Positions 12,136 to 16,891 of a stretch of 64,000 bases of DNA are shown here, in pieces. The notes under the pieces were generated by a model. The model worked only from the letters and a program-made list of their open reading frames with translations, did no database searches and was not told the DNA's origin. The DNA is taken from NCBI GenBank assembly GCA_963781705.1, contig CAWAGP010000010.1, positions 746,767 through 810,766 of the forward strand, read 5' to 3'. Position 1 is the stretch's first letter; the number at the start of each line of letters is the position of its first letter. The stretch comes from an uncultured Chloroflexia bacterium (GTDB taxonomy: Bacteria; Chloroflexota; Limnocylindria; Limnocylindrales; CSP1-4). Position numbers and translations under genes: made by a program.

Positions 12136-12507
12136 GTGCACAGCGGGTTCCCAGCCGTCGCCCCTAACGTCCCACGCATGCCAGTCAACTCGCCGCGCAA
12201 TTCGCGACCTCACCCTGCCGTGGTGGCGCGCGATCGGGCTGTACGCCGTGTTTCGCGGCTGACCGTCGCTACGGCGATCGCCGGCACTGCTGCCGCCGTT
12301 GGATTCGCCGGCCTGGCGGCCGTTACCTATGCCGGCACGACTCCGACGGCGACCACCCAGACAAACCAGGTGCAGTCCGACCAGCTCGCCAACGGTGTGG
12401 CCGCGCCGGCGCCAGCCACGGTCAATTCGCGCAACCGCATCCAGACGGTTCAGCCGCCTGGTTACAGCAGCGGCCGGGCGCGCGTGTCCTCAGGAGGCTC
12501 GGGATGA
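12136..12507 (+). CDS. Small exported or membrane-anchored protein with an RR-containing leader and a C-terminal SSGGSG tail
   Basis: GTG 12136, or alternatively ATG 12178. AVRRVSRL plus the hydrophobic TVATAIAGTAAAVGFAGLAAVTYA resembles a Tat/Sec leader or TM anchor. The rest is low-complexity T/Q/P-rich. Its stop overlaps the apbE ATG (ATGA). Confidence 0.5.
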   Translation: MHSGFPAVAPNVPRMPVNSPRNSRPHPAVVARDRAVRRVSRLTVATAIAGTAAAVGFAGLAAVTYAGTTPTATTQTNQVQSDQLANGVAAPAPATVNSRNRIQTVQPPGYSSGRARVSSGGSG

Positions 12508-13469
12508 CCATCACCTCAGCTCACTGGAACGCGATCGGCACGAACGTCGATCTGCTCGTCTACGACGGTCCGTTGGCACCCGCGCGAGCTGCCCTCGAGG
12601 CGTTGATCGAAGCCGCCGACCGCAGCTATAGCCGATTCCGGCCGGACAGCGAGCTGGCGCGCGTCAATGCTGCCGCCGGCGGCCGCGTCCAGGTCGGCTC
12701 TTTGTTCGCGCAGGCGCTGGAAGCCGGACTGCGCGGCGCCCGCCTGTCGGACGGCCTCGTTGACCCGACGGTCGGTCGGCTGCTCCGACTGGCTGGCTAT
12801 GACGCCGACTTCGCCGAGGTGGCTCGGCGCGGTTCGGCGCCGGTCCTGAAGGTTGAATCGATCGCCGGTTGGTTGGCCATAGATTGGAACTCCCAGGCAA
12901 GCACGGTCCGAGTTCCGGCCGGAGTCGAGCTCGACTTCGGCGCCACCGGCAAGGCGCTGCTGGTCGACCTGGGGGCCGAGGCCGCAATCCACGCACTGCC
13001 CCGTGATGCCGGCGTCCTGGTTGCCATCGGTGGTGACATTCGCATCGCCGGCGCTGTGCCTGCGCAGGGCTGGCGCGTGCGCATGGCCGAGGACAGCCGC
13101 ACGCCATGGCGCGGCGGGGGAGAGGTTGCCGTCCTGCGCCAGGGCGCGCTCGCCACCTCGAGTACCACCGTGCGGCGGTGGGGTGGCCGGGGGGCGGTCA
13201 TGCACCACCTCATCGATCCACGCACTGGTCGGCCGGCCAATGGGCCGTGGCGCACGGTGTCGGTCGCCGCCGCGACCTGCGTCGACGCGAACATCTGTTC
13301 GACGACCGGCGTGATGCTTGGAGAGCACGCCACCGGGTGGCTCAACGAGCGTGCCGTGCCGGCGCGGCTCGTATCGCGCACGGGCGACATCGTGCGTATC
13401 GGGGGATGGGCACCGGTACCGGTGCGTGTGGCGATGGAAGTGCCCAGCTCGGTGAGCGCGGCGGCGTGA
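12504..13469 (+). CDS. apbE: FAD:protein FMN transferase (ApbE family)
   Basis: 321 aa. SRFRPDSELARVN, GLVDPTVG, DFGATGKA and the C-terminal HHLIDPRTGRP are canonical ApbE motifs. No obvious signal peptide or lipobox. Confidence 0.9.
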   Translation: MTITSAHWNAIGTNVDLLVYDGPLAPARAALEALIEAADRSYSRFRPDSELARVNAAAGGRVQVGSLFAQALEAGLRGARLSDGLVDPTVGRLLRLAGYDADFAEVARRGSAPVLKVESIAGWLAIDWNSQASTVRVPAGVELDFGATGKALLVDLGAEAAIHALPRDAGVLVAIGGDIRIAGAVPAQGWRVRMAEDSRTPWRGGGEVAVLRQGALATSSTTVRRWGGRGAVMHHLIDPRTGRPANGPWRTVSVAAATCVDANICSTTGVMLGEHATGWLNERAVPARLVSRTGDIVRIGGWAPVPVRVAMEVPSSVSAAA

Positions 13470-14062
13470 GCGATCAACTGCTGTGGTTCGCCAGCCGCGG
13501 CTCCGGGATCGTGTCGCTCATCCTGCTCACCGCCGTGGGAGTGCTGGGCCTGCTGGCGGTGGCCGGTTGGCAGCGACCAGGTTGGCCGCGCTTCCTGACC
13601 GCTGATCTGCACAACAACCTCGCCCTGCTGGCGGTCGCCTTCGTTGCGGTCCACATCGTGTCTGCCGTGATTGATCCGTTCACCTCGTTGGGCATCTCGG
13701 CGGCAGTCATCCCATTCGCATCGTCGTACCGGCCATTGTGGGTCGGCCTCGGTGTCATCTCGGTCTACCTCGTCATCGCCATGATTGCCACCAGCCTGCT
13801 GCGTGAGCGCATGGGCCAGCGTGCCTGGCGCGCCGTCCACTGGGTCGCGTATGCGGCTTGGCCGCTGGCGGTTGCCCACGCCCTCGGCTCGGGCAGTGAC
13901 GCCTTCTCCGGTTGGTTCATGGCCATCGCCGCCATGTGTGTGCTCGCCATCTCGGCGGCCCTGTCGGCGCGCATCTGGTTGGCCCGCTCCCGACGGGCCG
14001 AGCTTCCCCTGGTCGTCGCCGAGTCCCGCCTACCCACGCCATTCGTCGGGCGCGAGCGCTGA
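13466..14062 (+). CDS. Ferric-reductase-like transmembrane domain protein (bis-heme b type)
   Basis: The GTG start overlaps the apbE stop (GTGA). About 6 TM segments. Two intramembrane His pairs: H-x13-H (LHNNLALLAVAFVAVH) and H-x12-H (HWVAYAAWPLAVAH), the spacing known from NOX/FRE bis-heme domains. Confidence 0.8.
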   Translation: MSDQLLWFASRGSGIVSLILLTAVGVLGLLAVAGWQRPGWPRFLTADLHNNLALLAVAFVAVHIVSAVIDPFTSLGISAAVIPFASSYRPLWVGLGVISVYLVIAMIATSLLRERMGQRAWRAVHWVAYAAWPLAVAHALGSGSDAFSGWFMAIAAMCVLAISAALSARIWLARSRRAELPLVVAESRLPTPFVGRER

Positions 14063-14063
14063 G

Positions 14064-15296
14064 GTGGAGCCTCGCCTGTTTGCCGGGCCACCCCTGGCCG
14101 CCGGCGCCGAGTCGCTGGGCGCCCACCTCGAGCGCCTGGGTCCGTTGCCGGTCGGTCGCCTCGATCTGACGGACGAGCTCGCGGCCAGCGGGCTGCTGGG
14201 ACGGGGCGGCGCGGCCTTTCCCGTCGCGCGCAAGTGGCGCAGTGTGGCCGAGCGCGGCGCCGGCGACGCGCGGCTGCTGGTTAACGGCGCCGAAGGCGAG
14301 CCGCTCAGCGCCAAAGATCGCACGCTGATGGCTCTACGGCCTCAGGTGGTCGTCGACGGAGCGTTGCTGGCAGCGGACGCTGTCGGTGCGCGCGAGATCG
14401 TCTTCTACATCGGTGCTGCGCAGCAGAAGGCGCGCGCGGCCGTCGCCCACGCGCTCGGCGAACGGCGCTCGGCGCGCCGGCGGCCAACGGTCTCGATCAG
14501 GCTGATTGCCGCGCCCGACGCCTACGTCGCGGGCGAAGAATCGGCCGCCGTTCATTTCGTGAACGCGGGCGACGCGCGGCCGACGACCACGCCGCCGCGT
14601 CCCTTCGAGCGCGGTATCGCTGGTCGGCCCACGCTCGTCCAGAATGCCGAGACGCTCGCGCACGTCGCCCTTATCGCCCGCTTCGGCTCGTCGTGGTACC
14701 GCGCACTCGGACGTGGCGCAACGCCTGGTTCAGGCCTGCTGACGCTCCACGGCGTGCGGGCGCGCGGCGTTCGCGAGGTCGAGTTCGGCACAACCGTCGG
14801 CGAACTGGCGGCCGGCGCCGGCCTCGACCAGGATGACATGCACGCCGTGCTCCTCGGCGGTTATTTCGGCGCCTTCGTGACGCCCGAGCGGGCCATGGGG
14901 CTGGCGCTCGACCCCCTCGGCTTACGCGGTGCCGGTCTTGGTCTGGGCAGCGGCGTCGTCGCCTTCCTCGGCCGGTCGGAGTGCGGCGTCAGGACGACGG
15001 CCGGGGTCATCGAATACATGGCCGCGCAGAGCGCCGCGCAGTGCGGTCCGTGTGTCTTCGGACTGCGCGCCATCGCCGATACCGTTGCTGCCGTGGCCAA
15101 CCTCCATGCGATGCCGGCCGACATCGAGCGCCTGCGGCGCTGGAACACGCAGCTCGTGGGACGCGGCGCCTGCCATCATCCCGACGGCGCCGCCAGCCTG
15201 CTGGCCTCTGCGTTCGACGTCTTTGCCACGGAGTTCGCCCTGCACGTCAACCACCGCAGTTGCTCCGCGCCGGCCGATCTACGCCGGGCGGCATGA
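14064..15296 (+). CDS. NuoF-like flavoprotein (Complex1_51K FMN/NADH domain, SLBB, NADH_4Fe-4S domain)
   Basis: GRGGAAFPVARKW, NGAEGEP and the C-terminal QCGPCVFG...GRGACHH cluster motif match NuoF/HoxF-type proteins. GTG 14064 lies 1 nt after the preceding stop. Confidence 0.85.
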   Translation: MEPRLFAGPPLAAGAESLGAHLERLGPLPVGRLDLTDELAASGLLGRGGAAFPVARKWRSVAERGAGDARLLVNGAEGEPLSAKDRTLMALRPQVVVDGALLAADAVGAREIVFYIGAAQQKARAAVAHALGERRSARRRPTVSIRLIAAPDAYVAGEESAAVHFVNAGDARPTTTPPRPFERGIAGRPTLVQNAETLAHVALIARFGSSWYRALGRGATPGSGLLTLHGVRARGVREVEFGTTVGELAAGAGLDQDDMHAVLLGGYFGAFVTPERAMGLALDPLGLRGAGLGLGSGVVAFLGRSECGVRTTAGVIEYMAAQSAAQCGPCVFGLRAIADTVAAVANLHAMPADIERLRRWNTQLVGRGACHHPDGAASLLASAFDVFATEFALHVNHRSCSAPADLRRAA

Positions 15297-15535
15297 GCCA
15301 ACTGCGCGGCGCCTACGCCAGCGTCGGCCGGACCCGACTGGTTGTCGATCGCATAGCCTGCGATGGACGCGGCCTGTGCGCGGAACTGCTTCCCGAACTG
15401 ATCACCCTGGATGAGTGGGGCTATCCCATCGTCGCCCAGGGGGAGGTGCCCGGCGCTCTCGAGCCGCTCGCCAGGCGTGCTGTCGGAGCATGTCCACTCA
15501 TGGCTCTGCGGTCGGAGGTGGCGCCGCCCAGGTAG
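15293..15535 (+). CDS. Small ferredoxin (single-cluster Fer4_15-like)
   Basis: 80 aa. VVDRIACDGRGLCAELLPE...GACP matches the CxxGxC...CP pattern of single-cluster ferredoxins. ATGA overlap with the NuoF-like gene. Confidence 0.7.
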   Translation: MSQLRGAYASVGRTRLVVDRIACDGRGLCAELLPELITLDEWGYPIVAQGEVPGALEPLARRAVGACPLMALRSEVAPPR

Positions 15536-15540
15536 CAGAG

Positions 15541-15577
15541 CACCACTGGCAGTGGTGTCCCAGCTCAGCGGTGCTGG
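15541..15577 (+). terminator. GC-rich stem-loops downstream of the ferredoxin gene (possible operon end)
   Basis: CACCACTG-G-CAGTGGTG (15541-15557) begins 6 nt after the stop and is followed by CCAGC...GCTGG. There is no U-tract, which is common in high-GC genomes. Confidence 0.3.
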
Positions 15578-15621: not shown

Positions 15622-16005
15622 ATGAAGGAGAGCGCCGCCGTGACCGCCACCGGCCTATCAGCCACCCCGGCCGAATACCGCAAGCGGCTCGCTCAGCAAT
15701 CTGACGAGCAGATCGACTCGTGGGCGGCGGAGCTGATGCGCGACATCTCCATCAGTCACGGCGTCACGCATGTCCTCGACAATCTGCGCTCCGCCTTCTC
15801 TGCTGACGACACCGGTTTGCAGCGGATCTACGCTCGCGGCGGCGGACCGTCGGCCGCAGTCGGCCACACCGAGGATGGCCGCCTGATGGTCCCGGCCATA
15901 TCGCTGCTCTACTTCGTGAGTGGCGCGCGCTTGGTGTTGCCCGACGCGCGGGCCCGGCTCATCAACTACCTGGTCAAGAACTTCGACGAACTGATCTATA
16001 TCTAG
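15622..16005 (+). CDS. Hypothetical protein (127 aa)
   Basis: ATG with GGAG 8 nt upstream. Amino-acid composition is non-repetitive and coding-like, and the 3' end has lower GC. I recognise no family. Confidence 0.5.
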   Translation: MKESAAVTATGLSATPAEYRKRLAQQSDEQIDSWAAELMRDISISHGVTHVLDNLRSAFSADDTGLQRIYARGGGPSAAVGHTEDGRLMVPAISLLYFVSGARLVLPDARARLINYLVKNFDELIYI

Positions 16006-16036
16006 ACCGCGATCCAGCTCGCGCGCGGATCGGCCC

Positions 16037-16891
16037 GTGGGACGCGCGCTCGGAGCCGTCCGCGTTGTCCATCCGGTTCCGTCGCTGGTCAACGCCGCTC
16101 TGGTCGTCGCCCTTGCCATCGTGGCGGCGGCACACGCTGGTGGCGCGCCGTCCAGCCGGGTGGTCGCGGTAGCAGCTCTGGGGCTGGGAATGCTCGGCCT
16201 GCAGTTCTGCATCGGTGCGACAAACGATTACGTCGACGCTCAGTCGGACGCGCGCAGCAAGCCGAGCAAGCCGATACCCAGCGGTCTGATCTCAAGCGGC
16301 GCTGTCCGGATGGTGGCCCTGGCCTGCGGCGGGGAAGCGCTGGTCGTCGCGGGGATGTTCGGTCCGCTTGTTCTGGCCATGGCGGCGGCCATGCTGGCGG
16401 CCGGCCTGACCTACGACCTGTGGCTCAAGCCAACCCCGCTGGCGTGGCTGTGCTTCTCGATTGCGTTCCCAATACTGCCCGTCTATGCCTGGTTCGGAAT
16501 GACCGGCCAGTTGCCGCCGAACTGGGGAATGCTGCTGCCGATGGCCGCTCTGGCCGGCCCGGCCATACAGCTGGCGAACGGCTTGGTCGACCTGGATGCC
16601 GATGAGCGCGCCGGTTTGACGACCCTGGCCGTACGCCTCGGCCGCCGTCGGGTAGTCGCGCTCATGAGCGCGATCCTGATCGTCATCCACGTCCTCGCGT
16701 GGTCAACGCTTGCCCACTCGCCGTCGGCGGTTGCCGTGGCGGCCGTAGCCAGCGGCTCACTGCTGGCGATCACGGGCGTCGCGCTCAGCGCGCGCGTATC
16801 GGCCCCGTGGCGCGAAGCGGGCTGGCAGGCACAGTGCCTGGGCATCGCTGCGCTCGCGACGGGCTGGTTGTTGGCCGCCGCCAGCGCCTGA
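16037..16891 (+). CDS. UbiA-family prenyltransferase
   Basis: Polytopic membrane protein with NDYVDAQSD (NDxxDxxxD) and a second Asp-rich motif (LVDLDADE). Confidence 0.8.
   Translation: MGRALGAVRVVHPVPSLVNAALVVALAIVAAAHAGGAPSSRVVAVAALGLGMLGLQFCIGATNDYVDAQSDARSKPSKPIPSGLISSGAVRMVALACGGEALVVAGMFGPLVLAMAAAMLAAGLTYDLWLKPTPLAWLCFSIAFPILPVYAWFGMTGQLPPNWGMLLPMAALAGPAIQLANGLVDLDADERAGLTTLAVRLGRRRVVALMSAILIVIHVLAWSTLAHSPSAVAVAAVASGSLLAITGVALSARVSAPWREAGWQAQCLGIAALATGWLLAAASA

Follow-up and report, generated by a model that had tools for sequence, protein, structure and literature searches.

A module of five genes was found on the forward strand of contig CAWAGP010000010.1 of the genome assembly GCA_963781705.1, which belongs to an uncultured Chloroflexia bacterium. 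The module occupies positions 12136-15535 of the analyzed window, a stretch of 64,000 nt with a G+C content of approximately 69%. Its genes encode, in order, a small single-pass membrane protein, an ApbE-family FAD:protein FMN transferase (FAD, flavin adenine dinucleotide; FMN, flavin mononucleotide), a ferric-reductase-domain cytochrome, a stand-alone NuoF-like flavoprotein, and a single-cluster ferredoxin. These five genes form one conserved module that is widespread in soil bacteria, and their synteny goes far beyond chance. With roughly even confidence, we propose that the operon encodes a split transmembrane electron exporter similar to the NADPH oxidases (NOX), in which five components would act together and a flavinylated tail of the small protein would serve as the outer carrier.

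The five open reading frames (ORFs) follow each other almost without spacing, and all of them, as well as their four junctions, are present in the sequence as described in the original prediction, which was made from the same DNA. The small ORF (12136-12507, at most 123 aa) overlaps apbE (12504-13469, 321 aa) by ATGA at 12504-12507, and apbE overlaps the cytochrome gene (13466-14062, 198 aa) by GTGA at 13466-13469. The stop codon of the cytochrome gene (14060-14062) is followed by one base (14063) and by the GTG start (14064) of the NuoF-like gene (14064-15296, 410 aa), which in turn overlaps the ferredoxin gene (15293-15535, 80 aa) by ATGA at 15293-15296. Domains were assigned by Pfam and NCBIfam profile scans of the five proteins; three flanking proteins were additionally scanned with Pfam. 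ApbE matched PF02424 (2.4e-46), the cytochrome matched PF01794 (5.4e-9) and can be labeled MsrQ-like, the NuoF-like protein matched PF01512 (8.9e-33) and PF10589 (1.5e-14), and the ferredoxin matched the Fer4_15 family (PF13459, 2.1e-12). No Pfam or NCBIfam family was matched by the small protein.

For the analysis of gene neighborhoods, 88 loci encoding the same subfamily of NuoF-like proteins were collected, including one from an exact-protein look-up (L001), seven from species genomes, and 80 from metagenomes. The metagenomic loci were found by two subfamily-specific peptides, SAAQCGPC and GAC[RH]HPDG; of the first 600 peptide matches, at least 502 were confirmed as such loci. An exact-sequence look-up of the NuoF-like protein of the window itself returned no record. 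The collected loci span metagenome-assembled genomes (MAGs) of Chloroflexota, Dormibacterota, and Actinomycetota as well as soil metagenomes, and the closest relatives of the module are found in MAGs labeled Chloroflexia / Ca. Limnocylindrales, Dormibacterota, and Solirubrobacteraceae.

Co-occurrence of the genes was counted by tblastn with the proteins of the window, using only loci with enough flanking sequence as denominators. The ferredoxin gene is located directly downstream of the NuoF-like gene in 77 of 77 loci, and the cytochrome gene directly upstream of it in 53 of 56. The apbE gene was found in 26 of the 31 loci with sufficient flank, where it precedes the cytochrome gene or follows the ferredoxin gene. 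Conservation of the neighborhood had been named in the original prediction as the check to be made, with loss of synteny as its refutation; the synteny was found, and the prediction stands on this point. If relaxed endings are counted, about 28 of the 31 complete loci have the gene for the small protein. This gene keeps its association with the module although its place varies: it can precede apbE or the cytochrome gene, follow the ferredoxin gene, or be transcribed divergently.

One apparent gene fusion was considered as Rosetta-stone evidence and rejected. A protein of 605 aa (P0012) combines Ferric_reduct and NuoF-like domains, but it originates from a long-read MAG contig (L001:4342-9818) in which asd and apbE are also split. 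Because the cytochrome match in this locus falls into two frames and both apbE and asd are fragmented, the cytochrome-NuoF-like fusion is considered an artifact of assembly frameshifts.

The cytochrome is predicted to bind two hemes b. Four histidines, H49 (13610-13612), H63 (13652-13654), H125 (13838-13840), and H138 (13877-13879), are the predicted ligands and are invariant in 34 homologs. Their H-x13-H and H-x12-H spacing, already described in the original prediction, was confirmed, as was the absence of a fused FAD/NAD(P)H dehydrogenase domain, since PF01794 is the only domain in the 198 aa. A total of 1393 homologs of the cytochrome were found, and the 120 listed among them are all 180-224 aa long. 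An AlphaFold2 model (pLDDT 80) has five long helices, with the histidine pairs in the helices 42-69 and 118-141. The top Foldseek matches of this model are SpNOX (8qq7), STEAP2 (7tai), and the transmembrane domain of NOX5 (5o0t), with high probabilities and weak E-values (0.1-0.5). A weak match to Ni_hydr_CYTB / cytochrome b561 (6e-4) was also found, and the protein is far below the MsrQ equivalog NF003831 (16.3 bits against a cut-off of 130). The charges of the loops fit an N-out, C-in topology, which would place one histidine of each pair near each face of the membrane, the bis-heme arrangement known from NOX.

In distant Actinomycetota-like loci, the cytochrome is longer: a further transmembrane helix and a conserved GPLQPGWARRAGTP segment are present, together with a β-rich C-terminal domain of about 130 aa that matches no Pfam family. 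Such extended cytochromes were found in L031:4405-4963, L036:1180-1756, L074:4476-4941, and about 25 other loci; the cytochrome of the window has no such extension. This C-terminal extension could be an outward docking domain. The apparent gap of about 500-600 nt that separates the cytochrome gene from the NuoF-like gene in many loci was considered as a candidate additional gene and rejected, as its sequence is the C-terminal extension of the cytochrome.

The NuoF-like protein is an unusual stand-alone NuoF. Its FMN loop GRGGAAFP (residues 46-53, positions 14199-14222) and the motifs NGAEGEP and YVAGEES align to NDUFV1, so the motifs of the FMN and NADH sites are retained. An AlphaFold2 model (pLDDT 82) has Foldseek TM-scores of 0.75-0.83 to HydB, NfnB, and NuoF. 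The protein is below the NuoF equivalog TIGR01959 (193 bits against a cut-off of 558.65), and no NuoE-type 2Fe-2S_thioredx gene was found among the scanned neighbors in the window or in the loci L096-L098. Five cysteines are invariant: C307 (14982), C327 (15042), C330 (15051), C370 (15171), and C400 (15261). The first cysteine of the motif for the N3 cluster is replaced by alanine (A324) in 32 of 32 sequences, which have SAAQCGPC for SCGxCxPC. Of the NuoF-like features named in the original prediction, GRGGAAFP was confirmed, whereas the C-terminal 4Fe-4S motif proved to be non-canonical. The invariant C307 and C400, which the subfamily has gained outside this motif, may supply the fourth ligand of the Fe-S cluster.

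The ferredoxin contains only three cysteines, C23 (15359), C29 (15377), and C67 (15491, followed by P68), in the motif C-x2-R-x2-C...CP. Each of them is found in 81 of 81 orthologs. The middle position, which is the place of the second cysteine in 4Fe-4S proteins, is occupied by histidine in 48 orthologs, by arginine in 12, and by tyrosine in 12. The nearest structures are those of two Mycobacterium tuberculosis ferredoxins, 8amq (fused to cytochrome P450 143) and 8amp, and 4id8. We take C-x2-H-x2-C...CP to be the pattern of the [3Fe-4S] ferredoxins that serve actinobacterial P450 enzymes, and the ferredoxin of the module probably carries a [3Fe-4S] cluster.

A second, paralogous module was found on the same contig as one of the collected loci (L007:11444-14664). 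It encodes a small transmembrane protein ending with LTTKSS, a leaderless ApbE, a Ferric_reduct cytochrome, a Pyr_redox_2/Reductase_C reductase, and a C-x2-H-x2-C ferredoxin. Thus, a P450-type ferredoxin reductase takes the place of the NuoF-like protein. Since only the reductase is swapped, it appears to be exchangeable while the ferredoxin-cytochrome pair is constant, and this replacement supports the order NAD(P)H to flavoprotein to ferredoxin to heme. The same chain, continued from the bis-heme b protein to an outside acceptor, had been proposed in the original prediction; its cytoplasmic order gains support from the paralogous module, and the interpretation as a whole is supported in part.

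The ApbE protein of the module is a clear member of its family (158.9 bits against a Pfam cut-off of 25.6). Its best match among known structures is TM1553 (1vrm, 6e-23), and the conserved motifs of the catalytic region (GATGKA, ATS, and HHLIDPRTG) can be aligned with those of 1vrm and 4xdt. In the frame that the ORF list opens at 12504, the domain starts around residue 10-12. Neither a signal peptide nor a lipobox was found in this protein or in any of its 41 orthologs, which does not agree with the extracytosolic flavin transfer implied by the original prediction. Leaderless cytosolic ApbE proteins represent the rarer type (PMC12052999).

The small protein was found to be the best candidate for the flavinylated partner. 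A possibly flavinylated outside acceptor had been suggested by the original prediction, which gave no role to the small protein; no FMN_bind-type acceptor was found in the window, and no match to FMN_bind, DUF2271, or DUF3570 was found by Pfam in the five module proteins and three flanking ones. The gene caller starts the small protein (P0121) at GTG 12220, which gives 95 aa, rather than at 12136, and this start is the probable one. Its basic N-terminus (RDRAVRRVSRL) is followed by one hydrophobic helix (L42-G67 in the 123-aa frame, LTVATAIAGTAAAVGFAGLAAVTYAG, positions 12259-12336), predicted to be a transmembrane or signal-anchor helix, and by a low-complexity tail of about 55-58 residues rich in S, G, A, T, and P, which ends with RARVSSGGSG. 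The candidate ApbE flavinylation site is the C-terminal S-G-G-S (S119-S122, positions 12490-12501), and one glycine follows it before the stop codon.

A set of 43 orthologs was selected by this C-terminal motif. Their N-terminal consensus, R-D-x-A-L-x-R-L-R-R-L-T, precedes one hydrophobic helix and a tail of 58 residues at the median, in which the main residues are S (20%), G (15%), A (14%), T (12%), and P (12%). The tail is taken to be disordered and without a fold. The mean net charge is +3.5 in the 20 residues before the helix and about 0 in the 20 residues after it; by the positive-inside rule, the small protein would have its N-terminus inside and its C-terminus outside. Only about half of the orthologs have a twin arginine. 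As it is not conserved, a signal for twin-arginine translocation was rejected, and VRRVSRL of the window protein, the basis of the RR leader in the original prediction, was not retained as a twin-arginine motif.

The C-terminus of the orthologs has the consensus [VA]-[VST]-[ST]-G-G-S. The stop codon comes directly after the serine in 35 of the 43, and the others have one more residue. The counts for the individual positions (G in 43 of 43; G in 41 and A in 2 of 43; S in 41 and T in 2 of 43) follow from the motif-based selection of the set. Residues upstream of the motif are also conserved in these orthologs. Some members end with SGAT, SGAS, or TGAS, that is, with the canonical ApbE motif [S/T]-G-A-[S/T]. 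When R-V-S-S-G-G-S of the window protein is compared with D-x-x-[S/T]-G-A-[S/T], the first serine, the glycine, and the final serine fit, alanine is replaced by glycine, and the aspartate is absent.

Circularity was checked by a hidden Markov model (HMM) built from the N-terminal and helix part only, with the C-terminal motif left out. This motif-free HMM found 13 further ORFs, 10 of which end with [ST]G[GA]S followed by zero to two residues. The other endings were ATGSS (one protein, in two loci), VSGSS (one), TTGTS (one), and one different. A profile search that exhaustively covered 1.84 billion representatives found 57 cluster representatives, and nearly all the full-length ones share the ending. 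Orthologs of the small protein adjoin the module in about 45 loci. Among 7774 stop-to-stop ORFs of the collected loci, 56 have the motif ending; about 42 of these are the tail genes, with a background of about 11-14. Apart from the small protein, no ORF of 50 codons or more in the 64-kb window, whatever its frame, ends with [ST]G[AG][ST] and zero to two further residues, and D..[ST]G[AG][ST] was not found in any frame.

The codons of the motif vary synonymously, which argues for conservation at the protein level. Serine is encoded by both TCN and AGC, and Gly-Gly is encoded by GGC GGC in 14 orthologs, by GGC GGA in 9, by GGA GGC in 5, and otherwise in the rest. In the window, the codons for S-G-G (tca gga ggc) also form AGGAGG at 12492-12497, a strong ribosome-binding site located 6 nt upstream of the apbE ATG. 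The Shine-Dalgarno sequence of apbE was rejected as the sole cause of the SGGS ending, because the codons of Gly-Gly and of the serine at -3 vary and the motif persists where the gene precedes other genes or is divergent.

Based on the resemblance of [ST]-G-G-S to the ApbE motif [ST]-G-A-[ST], the small protein is likely to be a substrate for flavinylation by ApbE, with FMN attached to S122. Two divergent tail proteins (L046:2582-2920 and L058:887-1459, both on the minus strand) contain the motif twice, as an internal VTGGST and a C-terminal VTGGS, which suggests two modification sites. Several genomes also encode another tail protein that ends with [ST]GGS, a few kb away from the module (L096:13799-14392, L097:13300-13923, L005:11400-11858, L032:9527-9904, and L020:7870-8901).

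Electron transfer through the proposed exporter would begin in the cytoplasm, where the NuoF-like protein would oxidize NAD(P)H at a non-covalently bound FMN and send single electrons through its one Fe-S cluster. The three-cysteine ferredoxin would then bring the electrons to the inner heme b (H49/H125), from which they would cross the membrane to the outer heme (H63/H138). The outer heme would reduce an FMN fixed by ApbE to the last serine of the helix-anchored tail protein, and this tethered flavin would pass the electrons to an external acceptor. Candidate acceptors include Fe(III) or another metal, O2, a quinone or humic compound, and an unlinked redox enzyme. The flavinylation step is proposed because of the motif, the linkage to apbE, and published data on ApbE tags: ApbE flavinylates seven-residue tags, best at protein termini, and it accepts substitutions of D and A in the motif (PMC12052999). 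What the sequences show directly is the order of the genes, the identity of the domains, the invariant ligands, and the conservation of the five genes and of the C-terminal motif; all cofactors, the direction of electron flow, the flavinylation and outside location of the tail, and the acceptor are inferred. Since the ApbE of the module is leaderless, flavinylation would take place in the cytoplasm before translocation. The short protein would leave the ribosome before its membrane insertion ends and be flavinylated where FAD is available, and the unfolded tail would then be translocated, which would account for the absence of a folded FMN-binding domain. It is conceivable, and we suggest it only tentatively, that the tail protein represents a new class of ApbE substrates: a disordered anchored tail that receives FMN on its last serine from a cytoplasmic leaderless ApbE, is threaded outward, and shuttles electrons from the outer heme across the envelope of soil Chloroflexota, Dormibacterota, and Actinomycetota.

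Several observations weigh against such an exporter. NuoF normally requires NuoE and four cysteines, and the module of the window has neither. The tail motif contains glycine where all proven ApbE substrates have alanine, and the conserved aspartate is missing. No apbE was detected by tblastn within 5-8 kb in 5 of 31 loci. No conserved acceptor gene was found nearby, and MsrP, VIT1, and FMN_bind are absent from the annotated neighborhoods of L096-L098. Full-text literature searches found no flavinylated tail without a fold. Additionally, no ortholog of the ApbE has an export signal, whereas the charge distribution places the tail outside, and the characterized leaderless ApbE proteins modify cytoplasmic proteins (PMC12052999).

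Alternatively, the cytoplasmic chain could be the same, with the cytochrome feeding the membrane quinone pool or an unlinked extracytoplasmic enzyme, as MsrQ feeds MsrP, and the tail motif would not be a redox site. Such a function has a precedent in E. coli, where the related MsrQ binds ubiquinone and supplies electrons to a periplasmic partner whose gene is close by (PMC12525009), and it would agree with the weak Ni_hydr_CYTB / cytochrome b561 signal and with the tighter linkage of the NuoF-like-ferredoxin-cytochrome trio (77/77 and 53/56) as compared with ApbE (26/31). However, neither MsrP nor Oxidored_molyb was found among the scanned neighbors in the window or in three annotated neighborhoods, the score of the cytochrome is far under the cut-off of the MsrQ equivalog, and its four histidines differ from the one heme plus FMN of MsrQ (PMC12525009). 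This explanation also leaves the joint travel of ApbE and the tail through changes of gene order without a cause, and we consider it rather unlikely. In another alternative, the leaderless ApbE may be purely cytoplasmic, with its flavin serving the cytoplasmic face or a remotely encoded target, and SGGS may be cytoplasmic due to an inverted topology or may be a signal for sorting or processing. Signal peptides are indeed lacking in 41 of 41 ApbE orthologs, known leaderless ApbE proteins act on cytosolic enzymes, members of the FRD superfamily use flavin as the heme donor (PMC12525009), and NOX, STEAP, and MsrQ all place a flavin under the inner heme. The cytochrome of the module, however, already has the inner heme pair where MsrQ and STEAP bind flavin, and the charge of +3.5 before the helix against about 0 after it argues strongly for the N-in, C-out topology. 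Moreover, no FMN_bind gene is present in the window, and no conserved [ST]G[AG][ST] was found in the alignments of the NuoF-like protein, cytochrome, or ferredoxin. A purely cytoplasmic role of ApbE appears distinctly improbable.

A dedicated O2-reducing analog of NADPH oxidases should also be considered, in which the outer heme would produce superoxide for signaling or defense and ApbE and the tail would be accessory. The histidine spacing of the NOX type, the best structural matches to SpNOX and NOX5, the hosts being soil bacteria from mostly oxic samples, and the two-component and PspC/LiaF-type envelope-stress genes that adjoin the module in some loci are all compatible with this function. 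Nevertheless, the Foldseek E-values are weak (0.1-0.5), nothing in the sequence bears on O2 reactivity, and no role would be left for the conserved pair of flavin transferase and tail; this explanation is regarded as very unlikely. The exporter with a flavinylated tail as its outer carrier remains the preferred reading.

In the window, the module is followed by an ORF of 127 aa that belongs to no family and by a gene for a UbiA-type prenyltransferase (15622-16891). Together with a flanking methyltransferase gene, these two genes are common to the closest relatives only, and all three are outside the module. The synteny of the 127-aa ORF and the UbiA gene is kept only in L001, L002, L004, L006, L016, and L098, upstream of the parB-parA and propionyl-CoA carboxylase genes. 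Genes for an OmpR-type response regulator and a HisKA kinase adjoin the module in L096:11620-13509, L097:11560-13511, L029:2931-4907, L086:641-2763, and L007:9494-10999; in L096 and L097, the two-component genes are followed by PspC/LiaF-like envelope-stress genes. The window has no such OmpR/HisKA pair. A scan for promoters and terminators found no promoters and two terminator-like sites, both intragenic and at the level of shuffled sequence. A perfect 8+8 inverted repeat (CACCACTG G CAGTGGTG) is located at 15541-15557, 6 nt past the stop codon of the ferredoxin gene. It is absent from the output of the terminator scan and might form a hairpin that marks the end of the operon but lacks a T-run.

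The energy metabolism of the hosts, Limnocylindria-type Chloroflexota and Dormibacterota, is poorly understood, and the module is common in uncultured soil lineages. If the proposed function is correct, the tail protein would be smaller than any other known natural flavin carrier and would represent a naturally evolved C-terminal flavin tag with G-G-S. A leaderless ApbE acting in the cytoplasm would remove the need for an FAD exporter and would raise a mechanistic question, the export of an unfolded tail that bears a cofactor. The tail protein would also account for a part of the orphan apbE problem raised by Meheust et al.

The combination of genes, which had not been recognized as a characterized system in the original prediction, is already listed in the literature. 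A survey by Meheust et al. (2021, eLife) described 1797 MsrQ-like flavinylation clusters, mostly from Actinobacteria, including 31 with a NuoF-like protein taken as the NAD(P)H input (PMC8238504). The window module resembles this NuoF-like subset, which is uncharacterized experimentally, in its composition: a PF01794 protein is encoded with apbE and a PF10589 NuoF-like protein, and NAD(P)H-driven electron export was proposed for such clusters. The MsrQ-like clusters typically include an FMN-binding domain gene (PMC8238504), whereas the module of the window has no FMN_bind domain, a leaderless ApbE, and a candidate tail without a fold. A ferredoxin partner is not mentioned in the section on MsrQ-like clusters (PMC8238504). 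For a cluster to be kept in the survey, ApbE or a known substrate had to carry a signal peptide or lipobox (PMC8238504), and the leaderless, FMN_bind-less type of module was probably filtered out. By this criterion, the ApbE of the window has no signal, and the N-terminal helix of the small protein could be either an anchor or a signal. Among the listed rows of the eLife supplement, the sole row with PF10589 is an ordinary nuoEF operon. A C-terminal flavinylation tail without a fold, the ferredoxin partner, and the altered N3 site are not mentioned in the 2021 survey, its 2024 follow-up, the 2025 review on ApbE, or publications found by full-text literature searches.

In flavin-based extracellular electron transfer of the Listeria type, PplA has folded FMN_bind domains, FmnB is an exported lipoprotein, and electrons come from the quinone pool via Ndh2 and EetA/B rather than via a cytochrome b with a NuoF-like input. 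The likeness to the proposed exporter lies in an ApbE-family enzyme that puts FMN on a membrane-tethered surface protein, from which electrons reach external acceptors (PMC8238504; PMC9973259). The tail can also be compared with the engineered flavin tag (Tong et al., 2021; reviewed in PMC12052999), for which a short terminal peptide without a fold is sufficient and a terminal position is best. That tag is artificial and keeps D-x-x-[ST]-G-A-[ST], whereas the natural candidate ends with [VA]-[VST]-[ST]-G-G-S.

On the cytoplasmic side, the pairs of ferredoxin reductases and 3Fe-4S ferredoxins in actinobacterial P450 systems use the same Fer4_15 type of ferredoxin, and the reductase of the paralogous module is of the Pyr_redox_2/Reductase_C type. 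In the window, however, the acceptor would be a membrane cytochrome b rather than a P450, and the reductase is NuoF-like. The proposed delivery of electrons from a soluble NAD(P)H oxidoreductase to a ferric-reductase-domain membrane protein is shared with E. coli MsrQ and the cytosolic flavin reductase Fre of the MsrPQ system, but MsrQ has one heme plus FMN and serves MsrP (PMC12525009), whereas the cytochrome of the window has four histidines and no MsrP. The label MsrQ-like thus fits this protein only loosely. With NOX5, SpNOX, and the fungal FRE proteins, the cytochrome shares the x13 and x12 histidine pairs on two helices, a similar transmembrane fold, and the proposed direction from cytosolic nicotinamide to the outside. 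It differs from them in having five helices rather than six and no fused dehydrogenase, the input being a separate FMN/Fe-S protein and a ferredoxin. In total, the module is not MsrQ, NuoF, or NOX proper, each of which fails at least one tested defining feature. If the proposed exporter is correct, it would bridge the fused NADPH oxidases and the multi-subunit respiratory complexes by combining a complex-I-type input, a P450-type ferredoxin, and a NOX-type cytochrome.

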